From UHGV virus genome UHGV-2044750: a DNA stretch of 27,057 nt; one strand, given 5' to 3'. A model generated the notes under the pieces. It worked only from the letters and a program-made list of their open reading frames with translations. It was not told the origin of the DNA and made no database searches. Both the position numbers and the translations under genes were made by a program. This DNA is from a virus. Of the stretch, positions 4,390-11,377 are shown piece by piece. Within the stretch, counting starts at the first letter, position 1. Every line of letters starts with the position of its first letter.

Positions 4390-4465
4390 GGCCCTTTAGC
4401 TCAGTGGTGAGAGCGAGCGACTCATAATCGCCAGGTCGCTGGTTCAAATCCAGCAAGGGCCACCA
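4390..4465 (+). tRNA. ileZ: tRNA-Ile (anticodon CAU, lysidine-type AUA reader)
   Basis: Cloverleaf folded by hand: 7-bp acceptor stem GGCCCTT/AAGGGCC, anticodon loop CTCATAA, T-loop TTCAAAT, 3' CCA encoded; closely resembles E. coli tRNA-Ile2. Symbol from the Stx-phage ileZ-argN-argO trio. Confidence 0.85.
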
Positions 4466-4472
4466 TCACATA

Positions 4473-4549
4473 CCGCCATTAGCTCATCAGGAAAGAGCGC
4501 CAGCTTTCGAAGCTGGTTGCGCGGAGTTCGGGTCCCCGAAGGCGGTCCA
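4473..4549 (+). tRNA. argN: tRNA-Arg (anticodon UCG) with one mismatch each in acceptor and T stems
   Basis: Anticodon stem CCAGC/GCTGG with loop TTTCGAA; acceptor CCGCCAT/AAGGCGG has an A-A mispair; T-stem has an A-C mispair; CCA encoded. Symbol is tentative, by order in the trio. Confidence 0.65.
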
Positions 4550-4562
4550 TTATCTGTATCCT

Positions 4563-4639
4563 GCGTTGTTAGCTCAGCCGGACAGAGCAATTGCCTTCTA
4601 AGCAATCGGTCACTGGTTCGAATCCAGTACAACGCGCCA
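4563..4639 (+). tRNA. argO: tRNA-Arg (anticodon UCU, reads AGA)
   Basis: Perfect acceptor stem GCGTTGT/ACAACGC, anticodon loop CTTCTAA, T-loop TTCGAAT, CCA encoded. Symbol is tentative, by order in the trio. Confidence 0.85.
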
Positions 4640-4930: not shown

Positions 4931-5266
4931 TTATGGACTTTGTTGTTTTAGTCCATAAGGACATATTTGCAGAGTGCAACGGTTATTAAAGCATTCATTC
5001 AATACGTTATCTGTATTTGTAGGGCATTCCTGGCTGTTTTTGATTAAATTCCAGAATGTTTTATTGAATGGTACTACGTTGTAAATGGTTACAGGTAGCA
5101 CTTTGTTATTGAGCATGATACCTGTGTGAGTCAGTGTAAATATACTTTCAGGAGGTAAGAAAGCATCCGATTGATACCAGATTATCAATTTTATTTTACT
5201 CCATATGACTGAAAAAGATATTCCGCATGATGGCTGGATAACTGTATCAATCACAATCCACTTCAT
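4931..5266 (-). CDS. Hypothetical protein (111 aa), AT-rich orphan ORF at the stx-equivalent locus
   Basis: Minus-strand ORF with AAGGAAA SD about 5-7 nt upstream of ATG; stop codon lies inside an 11-bp perfect inverted repeat (4929-4960); low GC relative to flanks; no family recognised. Confidence 0.5.
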
Positions 5267-5526
5267 TTAGTTTCCTTGTTTATGCCTTGCTGGTGATGTT
5301 CTGAAAAGTATAAATGATATTTTTGATTGTAAACCATAGAGCAGAATTATTTTTCTGATGTTGTTTATTGTTTATTTAAATGCAGGGTGGTTTATATCTC
5401 GTCTTGTAGTTTATCCATGCATATCTGCTTGATGATGAGGTTTTTATTTAAGGTATGGTTTTGTGTTTTTTCTGTATTACATGTCAGGTATTTTAAAGAA
5501 TTATTTTTCAGATGGTGGAAAGAACC

Positions 5527-7377
5527 ATGGCATTTAAACACTATGATGTTGTCAGGGCGGCGTCGCCGTCAGATCTTGCGGAAAAGCTGACACATAAACT
5601 GAAAGAAGGCTGGCAGCCGTTTGGTAGTCCGGTGGCCATAACCCCTTATACCCTGATGCAGGCGATTGCAGCAGAAGGTGATGTGGTCGTCAGTGGTGCA
5701 ACTGAGCCAGAGTGGTACTACGTCATCGTACTGGCCGGGCAATCCAATGCCATGGCTTATGGTGAAGGGCTTCCGCTTCCGGATTCATACGATGCGCCCC
5801 ATCCGCGCATTAAGCAACTGGCCCGTCGTAACACAGTGACTCCCGGTGGTGAAGTATGCGTATTTAACGACATCATTCCTGCTGACCATTGTCTGCATGA
5901 TGTTCAGGATATGAGTACGATTAACCATCCCCGGGCTGACCTGAGCAAAGGGCAGTACGGCTGTGTCGGACAGGGCTTACATATTGCCAAAAAACTGCTT
6001 CCGTATATCCCTAATAATGCGGGGATCCTGCTGGTACCATGCTGTCGTGGTGGTTCGGCATTCACCCAGGGCACGGAGGGGACATTCAGCGAGTCCACGG
6101 GGGCCAGTCAGGATTCGGCTCGCTGGGGAGTGGGTAAGCCGTTATATCAGGATCTGCTTTTCCGCACGAAGGCAGCATTGCAGAAAAACCCGAAAAACGT
6201 TTTGCTGGCGATATGCTGGATGCAGGGGGAATTCGATATGACGAATGCCAGTTACGCCCAGCAGCCAGCAGCATTTCTTGCAATGGTACAGCAGTTCCGT
6301 GCTGACTTTGCCGGGCTGGCGGCGCAGTGTCACGGTGGAAGTCCGGCATCAGTCCCCTGGATTTGTGGCGACACGACATACGCGTGGAAACAAGAACACG
6401 GTACGCAATATGAAGTGGTATATGGTGCATATAAAGGTAAAGAATCCCAGCAGATTTATTTTGTTCCCTTTATGACCGATGGTAGCGGAGTTAATACACC
6501 GACAAACAACCCGTCAGAAGATCCTGATATTGCCGGGTCTGGTTATTACGGTTCGGCATCCCGAACGAACAAAAACTGGGTATCATCAAATCGCCCGACG
6601 CATTTCAGCTCATGGGCGCGTCGTGGCATTATTCCCGATCGTATGGCAACTGCTATTCTGAACGTAGCCGGTCGCACCTTAGCCTTCATTAGTGGTAAGG
6701 CACCGGAAATCAAACCCTCGCCCGGCGGCGACACGCCATCGGGGCCGTCTGAAGATGCATCCGTACGCACAATCTCCCTGTTGCCGACAGCCGGAGATGC
6801 TGCTGCGCAGGGCTGGAGCATTAAGAATGGCGGAATTCAGTTGTCAGATGGTGTATTTAAGATCACCAAGCAGAGCAATAAAACCTGGTCCCTGATGCAT
6901 CCGGTGGATGACGCAATTACCCTGCTGACACAGGGCGGCAGACTGACCTGTAAGTTCCGCCTCTCAGGCGCACTGACCAACAATCAGTTCGGGCTGGGGA
7001 TTTATCTGTATACGGACGCTCCCGTTCCTGATGATGTGGCGATGACGGGTACTGGTAATCCGTTCCTGATGTCTTACTTCACTCAGACCACTGACGGCAG
7101 AGTGAATCTGATGCATCACAGGAAAGCCGGAAACACGAAGCTGGGGGAGTTCGGCGATTACGGTAACGACTGGCAGACGCTGGAGCTGGTGTTCACCGCC
7201 GGCAGTGCCACGGTTACTCCGAAACTGAATGGAGTGGCTGGCCCGGCATTCCAGGTTATAAAAGACAGTCTGACACTGGGACTGAATGCGCTGACGCTGA
7301 CGGATGTTACAAAAAGTGCAGCGTATGGCGTTGAGATAGAAAGTCTGGTGCTGGAGATAAATGCACCGGCAGCATAA
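5527..7377 (+). CDS. nanS: Prophage sialate O-acetylesterase, NanS-p type (DUF1737 N-domain plus SGNH/SASA esterase domain)
   Basis: N-terminus MAFKHYDVVRAASPSDLAEKL (DUF1737-like) and esterase block LAGQSNAMAYGEG (GQSN motif); about 616 aa; sits between the tRNA cluster and the lysis genes as nanS-p does in Stx-type prophages. The upstream in-frame ATG 5512 lacks an SD. Confidence 0.85.
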   Translation: MAFKHYDVVRAASPSDLAEKLTHKLKEGWQPFGSPVAITPYTLMQAIAAEGDVVVSGATEPEWYYVIVLAGQSNAMAYGEGLPLPDSYDAPHPRIKQLARRNTVTPGGEVCVFNDIIPADHCLHDVQDMSTINHPRADLSKGQYGCVGQGLHIAKKLLPYIPNNAGILLVPCCRGGSAFTQGTEGTFSESTGASQDSARWGVGKPLYQDLLFRTKAALQKNPKNVLLAICWMQGEFDMTNASYAQQPAAFLAMVQQFRADFAGLAAQCHGGSPASVPWICGDTTYAWKQEHGTQYEVVYGAYKGKESQQIYFVPFMTDGSGVNTPTNNPSEDPDIAGSGYYGSASRTNKNWVSSNRPTHFSSWARRGIIPDRMATAILNVAGRTLAFISGKAPEIKPSPGGDTPSGPSEDASVRTISLLPTAGDAAAQGWSIKNGGIQLSDGVFKITKQSNKTWSLMHPVDDAITLLTQGGRLTCKFRLSGALTNNQFGLGIYLYTDAPVPDDVAMTGTGNPFLMSYFTQTTDGRVNLMHHRKAGNTKLGEFGDYGNDWQTLELVFTAGSATVTPKLNGVAGPAFQVIKDSLTLGLNALTLTDVTKSAAYGVEIESLVLEINAPAA

Positions 7378-7670: not shown

Positions 7671-7877
7671 ATGGAAAAAATCACAACAGGTGTGTCATAC
7701 ACCACGTCAGCGGTGGGGACGGGATACTGGTTACTGCAGCTGCTGGACAAAGTCTCTCCGTCCCAGTGGGTGGCAATAGGTGTGCTGGGGAGTCTGCTGT
7801 TTGGCCTGCTGACGTATCTGACAAACCTTTATTTCAAGATTAAAGAAGATAAGCGCAAGGCTGCGAGAGGTGAATAA
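7671..7877 (+). CDS. S: Class II holin (pinholin), phage-21 S21 type
   Basis: 68 aa with two TM segments; the C-terminal part ([20 protein letters not shown]) matches my recollection of S21; GGAGA SD 10 nt upstream; stop overlaps the endolysin start (TAATG). Confidence 0.85.
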
Positions 7878-8377
7878 TGCCTCCATCATTACGAANNNNN
7901 NNNNNNNNNNNNNNNNNNNNNNNNNNNGCTGTTGCCATAGCGTCTGTGCTCATCACTGGTCCGAGTGGTGACGATGGCCTGGAAGGTGTCAGCTACATAC
8001 CATACGAAGATATCGTTGGCGTATGGACTGTATGTCACGGACACACCGGAAAAGACATCATGCCCGGTAAAACGTATACCGAAGCAGAATGCAAAGCCCT
8101 CCTGAATAAAGACCTTGCCACGGTCGCCAGACAAATAAACCCGTACATCAACGTCGATATACCGGAAACAACGCGCGGCGCTCTTTACTCGTTCGTTTAC
8201 AACGTGGGCGCTGGCAATTTCAGAACATCGACGCTTCTTCGCAAAATAAACCAGGGCGATATCAAAGGCGCATGTGATCAGCTACGGCGCTGGACATACG
8301 CTGGCGGTAAGCAATGGAAAGGGCTGATGACTCGCCGTGAGATTGAGCGTGAAGTCTGTTTGTGGGGGCAACAATGA
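7877..8377 (+). CDS. R: SAR endolysin (T4-lysozyme-like muramidase, R21 type); N-terminal SAR region partly masked by an N-run
   Basis: MPPSLR...[14 protein letters not shown] signal-anchor-release N-terminus and lysozyme core ([11 protein letters not shown]..., YNVGAGNF); 32 N at 7896-7927 are in frame. Confidence 0.85.
7896..7927. other. Run of 32 N (unresolved or masked bases) inside the endolysin gene
   Basis: Literal n characters in the sequence. Confidence 1.
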
Positions 8378-8810
8378 GCAGAGTAACCGCGATTATCTAC
8401 GTTCTGGTCATCTGCCTCATCGTCTGCCTTTCATGGGCTGTTAATCATTACCGTGATAACGCCATCGCCTACAAAGAGCAGCGCGATAAAGCCACATCCA
8501 TCATCGCTGATATGCAGAAGCGGCAACGTGATGTAGCAGAACTTGACGCCAGATACACAAAGGAGCTTGCTGATGCTAATGCGACTATCGAAAGTCTCCG
8601 TGCTGATGTTTCTGCTGGGCGTAAGCGCCTGCAAGTCGCCGCCACCTGTGCAAAGTCNNNNNNNNNNNNNNNNNNATGGGCAATGGAGAAACCCCAGGAC
8701 TTACAGCAGATGCTGAACTCAATTATTACCGTCTCCGAAGTGGAATCGACAGGATAACCGCGCAGGTTAACTACTTGCAGGAGTACATTAGGACGCAATG
8801 CCTTCGATGA
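8374..8810 (+). CDS. Rz: Rz i-spanin (inner membrane spanin); reading frame is broken across an N-run
   Basis: N-terminus [39 protein letters not shown] is Rz-like up to the N-run; after it the Rz C-terminus ([29 protein letters not shown], stop 8808-8810) continues in a different frame, so the N-run length is not the true length. Confidence 0.75.
8573..8757 (+). CDS. Rz1: Rz1 o-spanin (outer membrane lipoprotein) embedded in Rz in an alternative frame; interrupted by the N-run
   Basis: AAGGAG SD 8 nt upstream of ATG 8573; signal peptide [20 protein letters not shown] with lipobox, then a proline-rich stretch (KSPPPV); after the N-run the frame ending at 8757 has an Rz1-like tail ([13 protein letters not shown]). 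Confidence 0.6.
8658..8675. other. Run of 18 N (unresolved or masked bases) inside Rz/Rz1
   Basis: Literal n characters; both Rz and Rz1 change frame across it. Confidence 1.
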
Positions 8811-8882
8811 TAGCGATAATTTTCCCATTATCTTTTATATGCGTGATTTTAGTTAGTTTTAGTCGCAACACGAATAAAACAG

Positions 8883-8909
8883 AGAACCACCCGCTATACG
8901 AGTGGTTCT
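8883..8909. terminator. Hairpin between convergent Rz and the minus-strand moron gene (likely bidirectional terminator)
   Basis: 8-bp stem AGAACCAC/GTGGTTCT with 11-nt loop; U-rich flank on the minus-strand side. Confidence 0.4.
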
Positions 8910-8926
8910 GATTTACACTTTTGAAA

Positions 8927-9157
8927 CTAAAAGCTAAATACTTGAGCAAGAACAGCTAACGCTGCGCAAAAAGCAGCCCGTTTATTCCATTTACTTTGTA
9001 TTTCAATGGCTTTAAAACAACCCAGTGATGAGAAACTGCCTTGTTCCGTTTTTGGTGGGTGTTCTTTGGAAGATGCAAAACATGAAATAATCCAAAAAAT
9101 GGCGGAAAAAATTCCAAAAATTATTGAAGGCAAATGATGCTCTTTCAAAAACTCCAT
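8927..9157 (-). CDS. Small hydrophobic protein (76 aa), possible lipoprotein, in the position lambda uses for bor
   Basis: Minus-strand ORF convergent with Rz; hydrophobic N-terminus LPSIIFGIFSAIFWIISC ending in a lipobox-like IISC; not similar to lambda Bor by eye. Confidence 0.5.
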   Translation of the reverse strand: MEFLKEHHLPSIIFGIFSAIFWIISCFASSKEHPPKTEQGSFSSLGCFKAIEIQSKWNKRAAFCAALAVLAQVFSF

Positions 9158-9832
9158 GACTTAACTCTCTTAAAAGTTGCTAAACATCGCTCGCAAACAA
9201 GAAAGAAAAGTTCTGTTGCGAGCACTCCACAATTTAAACGCCACACAAGCAGCTATTAGGTGGACGGTTCCAAGATTGCTATCAACTGCCACCCGAATAC
9301 CGTCAAAACTTGACGTCCAACCAAGAATTATTGAGTTGTAAACTCAACGCAATGATCTGGTTGGTATAAATGTGACATATGTCATGAATCGACTAGTTGA
9401 GATAGTCAAGATGGGCTTGCTTGACATCATCACCACAACCGGAGCCAACAATGGCAGATTGCGTTACCCAGATTTGATAAAGGCATTTTAGCCTGACATA
9501 ACTATGCACTGTATCGTCGCCGTATTCCCGCATCAACAGAGACCACAGCCCGAGAGGGAGACTCCTCTGCGCGAGTGTGCGGGGATAATCAAAAACGATA
9601 CACACCGGGGTTTACCGTGTTAACGGAGCGCGGCGTTGTCCCCTCATGGTCGCTGGTCCGGTGCGATGGTGGAAGAAACCGGACGATGTGTTACCTCGCA
9701 AACTCTGTTATGTCATGTGTCTGATTTGTGATTTAAGTCGGATAATTGTCATTGCCATTAAGCAGAGGATTGATGACCGACAGGGCTGCATTGTTAGAAT
9801 AAGACTTATTCTTATCTATGCCGGGAATAAAA

Positions 9833-10159
9833 ATGAAAAGAAATCTTCCGTTAATTATTTTGTTGTCTTCTTTGGTTATGGGCTGTACGCAACATAAAAC
9901 AGATATGCCTCGACAGTTGGTTAAGGCATTACCACAATATCCGGCCTATGCCGCGGCAAATTATATAAAGGGACGGGTTGATGTGAAGTTTGATATTGGT
10001 GCTGATGGTACTGTCACCCGAATTGAGTTTATCCGTTCAGAGCCGCACCATCTGTTTGATGAGCAGGTTGTAAAGGCGATGGCAAAATGGCGATTTGAGA
10101 AGGACAAGCCGCGTAAAGGCGTGAAGAAAACATTTATCTTTAGTCCTTCAGCACCCTGA
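9833..10159 (+). CDS. Lipoprotein with TonB C-terminal-like domain (108 aa)
   Basis: Signal peptide MKRNLPLIILLSSLVMGC with lipobox LVMGC (Thr at +2); the mature part aligns by eye to the E. coli TonB C-terminal domain (YP..A....I.G.V.VKFD...DG.V......S.P...F...V..AM..WR.E..KP). ATG 9818 is an alternative start. Confidence 0.75.
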   Translation: MKRNLPLIILLSSLVMGCTQHKTDMPRQLVKALPQYPAYAAANYIKGRVDVKFDIGADGTVTRIEFIRSEPHHLFDEQVVKAMAKWRFEKDKPRKGVKKTFIFSPSAP

Positions 10160-10669
10160 TTATTTTATCAGAAGTTAATTATCACTCTGTTGCTATTCAG
10201 TACATCCCTGCAGGGTAAAGTCTTGTTTCGCCGGATATGAAGATGAAATATTGTTAGAAGACAGTAGCTACCGGTTCCTGTAACCGAACGTTCATTTCTC
10301 GTTATTTTTCATGCTGGCCGGGCGCAGGTGCTTTGCATCTGTTGCCAGCCTTCTCCTGCAGGCTTCAATAACCCATGCCGAAAAATTACCCGATCCCTTA
10401 CGTTCAAGGGCAATATGGATTTGATTAATCATCTGGTTTGGGAAGCTTTATTTTTTGATGACATTGTGTTTTTCCGTGTTCAGTGCTGCTGATTTGTATT
10501 GTCTTAAGATGTCTTTACGTTAAGTTGACACAGATCAATTAATGCATGACTTGGACAAAATTGATTATTTGTCGTGGTTTTATGGTGTACGTGGGATGTG
10601 TGATGGTATTTATATAAATGATAATTATTATCATTTATTGGGTCCTTTCCGGCGATCCGGCAGGCTACG

Positions 10670-10681
10670 GGGCGGCGACCT
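10670..10681. other. cosN: 12-nt cohesive-end sequence GGGCGGCGACCT (lambda-type)
   Basis: Exact match to the lambda cohesive end; the flanks ...TTTCCGGCGATCCGGCAGGCTACG | and | CGCGGGTTTTCGCTATTTATGAAAATTTTCCGG are close to my recollection of the lambda genome ends. Confidence 0.85.
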
Positions 10682-10721
10682 CGCGGGTTTTCGCTATTTA
10701 TGAAAATTTTCCGGGGAAAAT

Positions 10722-10830
10722 CATGTCGGTACTTCTCGAACATAACTATTTGTTTTTTCTAATATCGAATCCGTAAAAGGTCCGACATGAAAACGCCTAA
10801 AAAAGTCATTTTCGGGCACTTTCATGTCGG
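10722..10830. repeat. Candidate cosB R-site repeats: three copies of a CATGTCGG core (10722-10729 direct, 10782-10789 inverted, 10823-10830 direct)
   Basis: Repeats lie between cosN and the Nu1 start, where lambda has its R3/R2/R1 sites, but with a different sequence; an AT-rich spacer between copies 1 and 2 could hold an IHF site. Confidence 0.4.
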
Positions 10831-10857
10831 CCCCTGTATTTATTGTGAGACTGTTTC

Positions 10858-11377
10858 ATGAAGGTTAATAAAAAGAAACTTGCCGAAATTTTCAACGTGG
10901 ATCCGCGAACGATTGAACGCTGGCAGTCTCAGGGACTCCCTTGTGTCTCCGGAGGTGGTAAGGGCGTTGAATCTGTATTTGATACCGCCATGGCAATTCA
11001 GTGGTATGCGCAGAGGGAAGCTGATATCGAAAATGAAAAACTCCGTAAAGAGGTTGAGGATTACAGGGCTGCCAGTGAGGCAGATCTCCAGCCTGGGACT
11101 ATTGAGTACGAACGCCATCGACTTACGCGTGCGCAGGCCGACGCACAGGAGCTGAAGAATGCCAGAGACTCCGCAGAGGTGGTGGAAACCGCATTCTGTA
11201 CTTTCGTGCTGTCACGGATCGCAGGTGAAATTGCCAGTATTCTTGACGGGATCCCTCTCTCGGTACAGCGGCGTTTTCCGGAACTGGAAAACCGACATGT
11301 TGATTTCCTGAAACGGGATATCATCAAAGCCATGAACAAAGCAGCCGCGCTGGATGAACTGATACCGGGGTTGCTGA

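Follow-up and report, generated by a model that had tools for sequence, protein, structure and literature searches.

Results

The virus genome UHGV-2044750, analysed over its full stretch of 27,057 nucleotides (hereafter the window), represents the late region of a lambda-like prophage and carries, on the plus strand at positions 9833–10159 including the stop codon, a gene for a 108-residue predicted lipoprotein that is essentially a free TonB C-terminal domain. It is tentatively proposed that this protein acts as a competitor of TonB which caps Ton boxes at the outer membrane, a function to which slightly less than an even chance is assigned. The coding sequence is defined by the open reading frame (ORF), by profile matches and by RefSeq, where an identical 327-nt coding sequence from identical prophages bears the name 'TonB family protein' (WP_000828067.1). 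In Escherichia coli DCE7, WP_000828067.1 is annotated at the corresponding locus, and a region of 801 bp is 100% identical to the window. The gene and the domain call are already present in databases, and the function alone is undescribed. New here are the recognition of a lipoprotein clade, the conserved slot between spanin and packaging genes, the purifying selection acting on the gene and the Fur-box-like promoters. An earlier note on this DNA had not recognised the gene as a described system. This stands for the function, for which no study was found in open-access papers and preprints (a paper in a subscription journal could be missed), but not for the gene, which already bears names in databases and occurs in roughly 30% of complete E. 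coli genomes.

Structure of the TonB C-terminal domain

The TonB C-terminal domain, which the earlier note had recognised by eye, is borne out by sequence profiles, pairwise alignment and predicted fold. It comprises residues 26–104 (9908–10144, plus strand), which correspond to residues 153–231 of E. coli TonB. The anticipated match to the Pfam family TonB_C (PF03544) was obtained at 57.2 bits against a cutoff of 24.6 (E=2.4e-15), and TIGR01352 was matched at 57.1 bits against a cutoff of 27.1. A sequence search of the PDB returned chains of TonB C-terminal domains alone, with E-values of about 1e-16, and BLASTP gave a gapless alignment with TonB 153–230 at 41% identity.

For structural comparison an AlphaFold2 (AF2) model derived from an alignment of 38 sequences was used; an earlier model from a 5-sequence alignment, with a predicted local distance difference test score (pLDDT) of 59, was discarded. 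The mean pLDDT of the model is 87.9, with values of 97–98 over residues 31–100 and low values before about residue 26. The TonB_C part folds into a short strand, a helix, two strands, a second helix and a final strand equivalent to β3 of TonB. It can be superimposed on BtuB-bound TonB (2gsk_B) with a root-mean-square deviation (rmsd) of 1.0 Å (TMt 0.92), on FhuA-bound TonB (2grx_C) with 1.1 Å and on 1u07 with 1.3 Å. A Foldseek search of the PDB yielded 11 matches with E <= 0.001, all of them TonB-family C-terminal domains including the TonB homologue FusB, at rmsd values of 1.0–3.0 Å; for the crystal and complex structures from E. coli, Salmonella and P. aeruginosa the rmsd is 1.0–1.5 Å.

The positions of TonB P161, Y163, P164, F180, F202, W213, Y215 and F230 are kept, with Phe taking the place of Y215. 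At the YP and aromatic positions the phage protein carries Y36, P37, F53, F75, W86, F88 and F103. These positions follow the set of conserved TonB residues reportedly listed by Ghosh and Postle in 2004; the final strand corresponds to β3 of TonB, which is reported to pair with the Ton box in the complexes 2GSK and 2GRX.

Neither the membrane anchor nor the proline-rich spacer of TonB is found in the 108-residue protein, as the earlier note had pointed out. Apart from the short length of the protein, this is indicated by five full-length TonB equivalog models (PRK10819-type NCBIfam), all of which score below their cutoffs (50–74 bits against 265–448); the best of them, NF008084, reaches 74 bits against a cutoff of 315, and the match is limited to the C-terminal part of the model. 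The sole hydrophobic segment of the protein, residues 1–17, is a predicted cleavable lipoprotein signal peptide, and there is no N-terminal transmembrane anchor.

Start codon and lipoprotein signal

The start codon at 9833 is supported by comparison with the phage 21 allele, which is 70% identical: the block GGAATAAAAATGAAAAG, reaching from the ribosome-binding site to the start, is common to both, and a 13-nt indel just 5' of the start removes the alternative ATG at 9818 from the phage 21 allele. The ribosome-binding site GGGAA (9823–9827, plus strand) lies 5–10 nt 5' of the ATG, and its counterpart AGGA is annotated as a ribosome-binding site in phage 21.

Positions 9833–9886 (plus strand) encode the predicted lipoprotein signal peptide, MKRNLPLIILLSSLVMG, followed by Cys18 (codon 9884–9886) and by Thr19 as the +2 residue. 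The lipobox LVMG-C18 passes a rule of the PROSITE PS51257 type: the n-region contains K2 and R3, the h-region is free of charges and the cysteine is residue 18. The lipobox LVMGC with Thr at +2, described in the earlier note, is thereby upheld, with the correction that the lipidated cysteine is residue 18. Across 13 aligned members of the family, lipobox and cysteine are invariant. The PROSITE-type rule is passed by 10 of 11 members, and the remaining one, P0040 (LSAC), fails solely through a proline at -4. The +2 residue is Ser, Thr or Ala in the aligned short members and Val in the outlying P0174, but never Asp. In E. coli, Asp at +2 is the signal for avoidance of the Lol pathway. Since Thr occupies this position, the Lol pathway should deliver the protein to the outer membrane's inner leaflet; lipidation and outer-membrane sorting are both predictions made from the amino acid sequence.

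The TonB-homologous region begins at P26, which corresponds to TonB P153, and is separated from the lipidated cysteine by a short tether of seven residues, TQHKTDM (9887–9907, plus strand). The mature part of 90 residues combines this tether with a complete TonB C-terminal domain and equals roughly residues 145–235 of TonB.

Distribution and selection

The survey of homologues proposed in the earlier note was carried out and located the gene in E. coli genomes, in phage 21, and in prophages and chromosomes of Enterobacterales. Among 5426 complete E. coli genomes, 1616 (about 30%) carry the gene, and in 1612 of these the match extends over at least 80% of its length. Judged by the best match per genome, about 414 genomes hold the allele of the window type (at least 95% DNA identity) and about 1200 hold an allele of a second clade (about 72% DNA and 70% protein identity). 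This second and commoner E. coli clade is represented by the phage 21 allele, CPT_21_73, which is labelled 'TonB C-terminal domain protein', adjoins bor and is not mentioned in the phage 21 genome announcement. The gene is found in only 15 of 50,697 deposited phage genomes; besides phage 21, carriers include Stx1a phages, JLK-2012, ev017 and Perceval, together with a Klebsiella phage at 41% identity. It is enriched in prophages of pathogenic E. coli, for example in enteropathogenic E. coli (EPEC) E2348/69 and in Stx phages. A fold search of the viral structure library BFVD returned nothing resembling TonB_C, so that this fold is a rarity in the catalogue of viral proteins.

An exhaustive search without profiles, covering 1.8 billion representatives, yielded short proteins of 105–135 residues which cover the whole query, nearly all of them with a lipobox and all with generic database names such as 'TonB family protein'. 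The short lipoproteins come out as one clade, sister to the TonB C-terminal domains of enterobacteria, when placed in a rough neighbour-joining tree without bootstrap. By sequence, Enterobacterales thus possess short TonB_C lipoproteins that form a clade of their own and occur in prophages as well as on chromosomes.

Relatives were located in genomes with a 5-sequence alignment as query. In phage and viral contigs of other Enterobacterales, the gene lies directly 3' of the spanin genes and 5' of the packaging genes, although the backbones differ in endolysin (phrog_181 or phrog_7), spanin (phrog_312 or phrog_13) and terminase (phrog_15, phrog_9 or phrog_2). The same arrangement of spanin, TonB_C and packaging genes occurs in a Sodalis prophage (locus L012) and in the Klebsiella phage (locus L003). 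Such a conserved slot on unrelated backbones is typical of a selected accessory gene. Between the window allele and the phage 21 allele, the nonsynonymous rate (dN) is 0.19 and the synonymous rate (dS) about 1.5, and the resulting dN/dS of 0.13 indicates purifying selection rather than a decaying fragment.

In Raoultella, Klebsiella sp. and Erwinia, homologues are located among ordinary chromosomal genes, namely lacZ/lacI-like genes, DUF1440 (YagU-like), araA and panE (L004, L006, L008 and L009 for Raoultella/Klebsiella, at about 8000–8330; L010 and L013 for Erwinia). No phage genes were found near the examined homologues of these three groups, so viruses are not the only carriers of the family. 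Several species of Raoultella and Klebsiella show synteny at the chromosomal locus.

Some of these loci offer further observations. The DUF1440 gene next to the Raoultella homologue (L004, 8738–9301) is 61% identical to a DUF1440 moron of the Klebsiella phage (L003, 1277–1903), and from the sequences this phage may have captured its DUF1440 and TonB_C genes together from that chromosomal region. In a Klebsiella-type prophage, a gene of the Ivy family (inhibitor of vertebrate lysozyme; Pfam E=7e-19; L109, 6449–6871) is situated directly 3' of the TonB_C gene; by its predicted product, the slot here holds a further moron with a protective role in the periplasm. A contig of 418 bp labelled Modestobacter excelsi (L011, NZ_SJEX01000172.1) covers residues 1–67 of the protein with an identity of 70%, as found for the phage 21 type, and is most likely contamination from E. 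coli or a phage.

Predicted promoter and Fur-box-like palindrome

A predicted sigma-70 promoter (9773–9800, plus strand) is found 33 nt 5' of the ATG. It consists of the -35 element ATGACC, a 16-nt spacer and the extended -10 element TGTTAGAAT, and scores 9/12 in a consensus scan, with a TG motif. A TGTTAG(A/T)AT element is kept at equal distance from the start in phage 21 and in Klebsiella-type, Raoultella and other homologues. A sequence scan detected no intrinsic terminator 3' of the gene.

Overlapping the -10 element is a degenerate Fur-box-like palindrome, GATAAGAATAAGTCTTATT, with the core AGAATAAGaCTTATTCT (9798–9816, minus strand). Fur-box-like sites were scored as matches to the 19-mer consensus GATAATGATAATCATTATC, of which the window palindrome shares 13/19; with both strands counted, the whole window of 27 kb contains 11 19-mers that score at least 13/19. 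Most lineages have a Fur-box-like palindrome at 29–37 nt 5' of the start codon, in overlap with the extended -10 element. The match amounts to 17/19 in the Sodalis prophage, 16/19 in two Klebsiella-type contigs and in Erwinia, 15/19 in the P0035-type prophages and in chromosomal Raoultella, and 14/19 in most P0039-type prophages (sites at L012 7962–7980, L109 and L101 5967–5985, L004/L006 7972–7990, L009 7916–7934 and L013 1609–1627). Each of the sites with 14–17/19 matches ranks in the top 0.3–1.6% of the 100-nt windows of its own locus. Fur is well known to control tonB and the genes for the transporters; with Fur-like promoters in most lineages, the family therefore looks, at the level of sequence, ancestrally co-regulated with the TonB system.

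AT-rich palindromes that match the Fur-box consensus at 15–16/19 also recur just 5' of cosN or the terminase genes in several phages (window 10614–10638; L002, which is phage 21, 5036–5060; L109 7212–7230; L012 9665–9689; L137 8830–8848; L003 8601–8625). In phage 21, this palindrome adjoins the annotated cosQ. The palindromes near cosN may be packaging sites or sites related to integration host factor rather than Fur sites.

Position of the gene within the prophage

In agreement with the placement given in the earlier note, the gene lies between the lysis genes and cos, about 1 kb 3' of Rz/Rz1. The lysis cassette (7671–8810, plus strand) comprises a class II holin (7671–7877), an endolysin (7877–8377) and Rz (8373–8810) with Rz1 embedded near 8543–8716. 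Runs of N at about 7892–7925 and 8655–8680, which appear as X in the translations, break the frames of endolysin and Rz/Rz1; they represent masking and not gene disruption, since the identical prophage of E. coli DCE7 has intact genes. On the other side, cosN, an exact copy of the lambda 12-mer GGGCGGCGACCT, is located at 10670–10681 (plus strand), 510 bp 3' of the TonB_C gene, and is followed by terS, which starts at 10858, and then by the head and tail genes.

The gene is part of a stretch of low GC content (about 8650–10900; GC 0.37–0.44 against 0.51–0.55 in the flanks), which also contains a 76-aa ORF and a DUF3950 ORF, both on the minus strand. This composition unlike that of the flanks, with a GC content of 0.38–0.43 for the gene against 0.51–0.55, together with a presence that varies among related phages (lambda is not among the 15 carriers listed), characterises the gene as a low-GC insert in a lambdoid late region and fits the description as a prophage moron in the earlier note.

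Several neighbouring features were noted in addition. The hydrophobic 76-aa ORF (8927–9157, minus strand), a RefSeq hypothetical protein, occupies the part lowest in GC (0.37–0.39), is bracketed by terminator-like hairpins at 8883–8909 and 8961–8977, and is probably another moron. A block of about 140 nt (window 9565–9700, phage 21 3756–3880) is conserved at about 85–90% between the two clades, which are otherwise 72% identical; it overlaps an ORF of 46–49 residues (CPT_21_72 in phage 21, hypothetical) and has no Rfam match, and an Rfam search of 8600–11000 gave nothing meaningful. The region 5' of the lysis genes holds three tRNA genes (Met-CAT, Arg-TCG and Arg-TCT; 4390–4639), a gene for an IraM anti-adaptor (4931–5266, minus strand) and a gene for a carbohydrate esterase of the SASA family (5512–7377), which are the usual accessory load of lambdoid prophages of enterohaemorrhagic E. 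coli and EPEC.

Discussion

Proposed mode of action

A protein without an N-terminal transmembrane helix and without a spacer that spans the periplasm cannot couple to ExbB–ExbD or energise transport. Its docking module would instead stay a few nanometres at most from the outer membrane's periplasmic face, where Ton boxes emerge. Here its most likely activity, the one retained by the fold, would be to bind the Ton boxes of TonB-dependent transporters and of bacteriocins bearing a Ton box by β-strand addition. Occupied Ton boxes would put the protein in competition with the scarce genuine TonB, and TonB-dependent import would be damped. The expected outcome would be a lower sensitivity to TonB-dependent phages (T1/phi80-like), to group B colicins and to siderophore-microcins, at the cost of some loss of siderophore and B12 uptake.

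In the lysogen, the gene would be expressed from its own predicted extended -10 promoter. If this promoter was ancestrally repressed by Fur, the protein would rise together with the receptors under iron limitation. Because the gene is on the strand of the late operon, late transcripts antiterminated by Q should cover it as well and should allow expression in lytic growth. The most likely payoff would be a reduced sensitivity to TonB-dependent phages and bacteriocins when the receptors are derepressed. A stronger version, in which a Fur-switched 'anti-TonB' at the outer membrane caps many Ton boxes and gives the lysogen broad resistance to phages, group B colicins and siderophore-microcins under iron starvation, is more doubtful. 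Such an 'anti-TonB' would be a generic, receptor-independent principle of exclusion, unlike the receptor-specific Cor and Llp.

Capping of Ton boxes is supported by the match of the fold to TonB bound to BtuB and FhuA, with the YP/aromatic core and the final strand kept. It is further supported by the invariant lipobox, the absence of Asp at +2, the purifying selection, the conserved slot and the GC contrast, while the Fur-box-like sites link the family to the TonB/iron regulon. The decoy idea put forward in the earlier note is plausible by analogy with engineered TonB fragments, an experimental precedent absent from that note, and with phage lipoproteins. TonB fragments are also said to have protected cells from phi80 and colicin M in the work of Howard and co-workers of 2001, and active fragments reportedly comprised about 96 residues or more in that of Koedding and co-workers of 2004. 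The periplasmic fragments 33–239, 103–239 and 122–239, exported as fusions to a signal sequence, abolish the activity of the TonB system, including ferrichrome transport, and the original authors attributed this inhibition to blocked contacts between TonB and the transporters (bioRxiv 10.1101/2020.01.05.895219). Like the phage protein, these fragments place an anchor-less TonB C-terminal domain in the periplasm and inhibit TonB-dependent transport. However, they are soluble, overexpressed and longer laboratory constructs, whereas the phage gene is natural, has a predicted lipid anchor and a minimal tether, and is known from sequence and model.

Several points weigh against a Ton-box-capping competitor. 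The tether of seven residues may be too short for canonical docking if the N-terminus of the domain faces away from the membrane, and a general antagonist of TonB that is induced under iron starvation would be costly. At positions implicated in contacts of TonB with transporters, some residues are changed (Q160 to Leu33, R166 to Tyr39 and R158 to Lys31) and vary within the family. Leu33 need not be disqualifying, as TonB Q160L itself is reportedly a functional suppressor allele. The Fur-like site of the window is weak, and in the commoner phage 21 clade it is reduced to 10/19, having been lost through the 13-nt deletion. That homologues are conserved at chromosomal loci in Raoultella, Klebsiella and Erwinia is a hint of some physiological function other than phage exclusion, and no PADLOC defence model matches the protein or the three neighbouring small ORFs. 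Furthermore, the J protein of the carrier phage, as seen in the complete prophage of E. coli DCE7, is unrelated to the FhuA-binding J of the HK022 type; it has a lambda scaffold, the last approximately 150 residues of which diverge from lambda (L020, 36562–39975; the end of the window falls within J). The sequence of J consequently gives no indication of self-exclusion of the kind known for Cor and Llp. The divergent tip of this J is 95–96% identical to that of Stx1a/Stx2c phages, Perceval, ev207 and PhiR49_1.

Alternative explanations

Binding of the Ton box would equally be the molecular step if the protein were a modulator of iron uptake, that is, a Fur-controlled TonB domain tethered to the outer membrane which manages Ton-box occupancy where there are far more transporters than TonB molecules. 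Its task might be to cap or shield Ton boxes not in use, to favour certain transporters over others or to slow uptake, and its benefit to prophages would lie in the fitness of lysogens short of iron. The Fur-box-like promoters in most lineages, including the chromosomal ones, and the syntenic chromosomal locus with its housekeeping neighbours tie the family to iron physiology and make a homeostatic role possible, as opposed to pure superinfection exclusion. This explanation is nevertheless considered unlikely: no transporter or iron gene adjoins a homologue in any locus examined, the protein cannot transduce energy, the phage-21-type alleles that form the E. coli majority are without a Fur-like site, and to our knowledge there is no precedent for a modulator of that kind. 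Rather improbable is a domain re-targeted to another periplasmic partner such as peptidoglycan, Lpp/OmpA, ExbD or periplasmic binding proteins, where it would serve envelope stabilisation or block DNA entry or lysis from without. The loss of the contact-implicated residues Q160 and R166 and a family-specific, common Lys at the position of TonB V226 argue for such a shift, and contacts of TonB with Lpp/OmpA and peptidoglycan have reportedly been described, by Kaserer in 2008. On the other hand, the fold stays within about 1 Å of transporter-bound TonB, the strand equivalent to β3 is intact and regulation of the Fur type fits the transporter regulon. Contacts between ExbD and TonB have been raised as an alternative target of soluble TonB domains (bioRxiv 10.1101/2020.01.05.895219), but from an outer-membrane tether of seven residues ExbD at the inner membrane is unlikely to be reached.

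Size class, lipoprotein nature and the slot between Rz and cos are shared with Bor/Iss of lambda and phage 21, which likewise are encoded by small genes for outer-membrane lipoproteins with moron-like composition and a variable presence among lambdoid phages; phage 21 has both genes side by side. In combination with the enrichment in prophages of pathogenic E. coli, this could suggest a surface-exposed or immunomodulatory lipoprotein for host interaction or virulence, unrelated to TonB function. It is very improbable, as the protein has no sequence or fold relation to Bor, its domain is a well-conserved periplasmic interaction module, and Sodalis, Erwinia and Raoultella, none of them pathogens of mammals, also have homologues; moreover, bor is on the opposite strand and the role of Bor is serum resistance. 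Hardly any probability is given to a lysis accessory or o-spanin, although the protein matches phrog_1267, labelled 'Rz-like spanin', with E=3e-42 and an outer-membrane lipoprotein gene near the lysis genes would suit that label. The anatomy contradicts it: the window has a complete Rz with embedded Rz1, phage 21 has annotated i- and o-spanins, and the TonB_C gene, situated about 1 kb further downstream, has a promoter-like element of its own and encodes a folded domain of 80 residues, in contrast to the short proline-rich o-spanins. As separate and complete spanin pairs are present in both phages, the PHROG label probably derives from position alone. Just as remote is a functionless remnant of a captured tonB fragment. 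Several database members do have frameshifted or truncated C-termini, but the dN/dS of 0.13, the acquired and invariant lipoprotein signal peptide, the position kept across phage backbones and genera, and full-length copies in 1612/5426 genomes contradict a dead fragment.

Comparison with known systems

The C-terminal domain of E. coli TonB (about residues 150–239; 1U07, 2GSK and 2GRX) shares with the phage protein the Pfam/TIGRFAM domain, the gapless identity of 41%, a fold within 1.0–1.3 Å, the YP motif, five aromatic positions and the last β-strand. Unlike TonB, the phage-borne protein stands alone, without the anchor that couples to ExbBD and without the spacer, its predicted tether is in the outer and not in the inner membrane, it ends four residues earlier, and Q160, R166 and other contact positions are changed. 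Its direct counterparts, CPT_21_73 as a homologue and WP_000828067.1 as the same protein, are known by annotation labels only.

Llp of T5 and Cor of phi80, N15 and HK022 are small phage lipoproteins that reside in the outer membrane's inner leaflet and act on the TonB-dependent transporter FhuA; placed under FhuA on the periplasmic side, they block infection. In a 2024 review of superinfection exclusion, Cor is the sole entry for TonB-dependent receptors. The analogy to Llp and Cor drawn in the earlier note holds as far as the small phage lipoprotein is concerned, but extends neither to homology nor to a shared fold nor to an indication of self-exclusion: the phage protein has no Pfam or PHROG match to the Llp/Cor family, and its TonB_C fold is unrelated. 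Whereas the allosteric block exerted by Llp and Cor is specific for FhuA, the TonB_C protein would act via the generic Ton box and hence broadly. The gene positions differ as well, cor being located after the tail genes and the TonB_C gene between Rz and cos.

Implications

Should the protein prove to be an antagonist of TonB, one of the very common prophage genes would modulate the sensitivity of its host to a whole class of phages, colicins, microcins and siderophore–antibiotic conjugates as well as the uptake of iron and B12. This would bear on the host range in phage therapy, on the ecology of bacteriocins in the gut and on the efficacy of Trojan-horse antibiotics. It would also be the natural counterpart of a laboratory finding that is 25 years old, the dominant-negative effect of periplasmic TonB fragments, and would provide a minimal, membrane-proximal Ton-box binder for studies of how TonB and its transporters recognise each other. 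Roughly 30% of E. coli genomes would then contain an anti-TonB principle, and other Enterobacterales would have relatives of it on their chromosomes. Finally, the predicted control by Fur and the chromosomal homologues raise the possibility that cells manage the imbalance between TonB and its transporters with such a factor.

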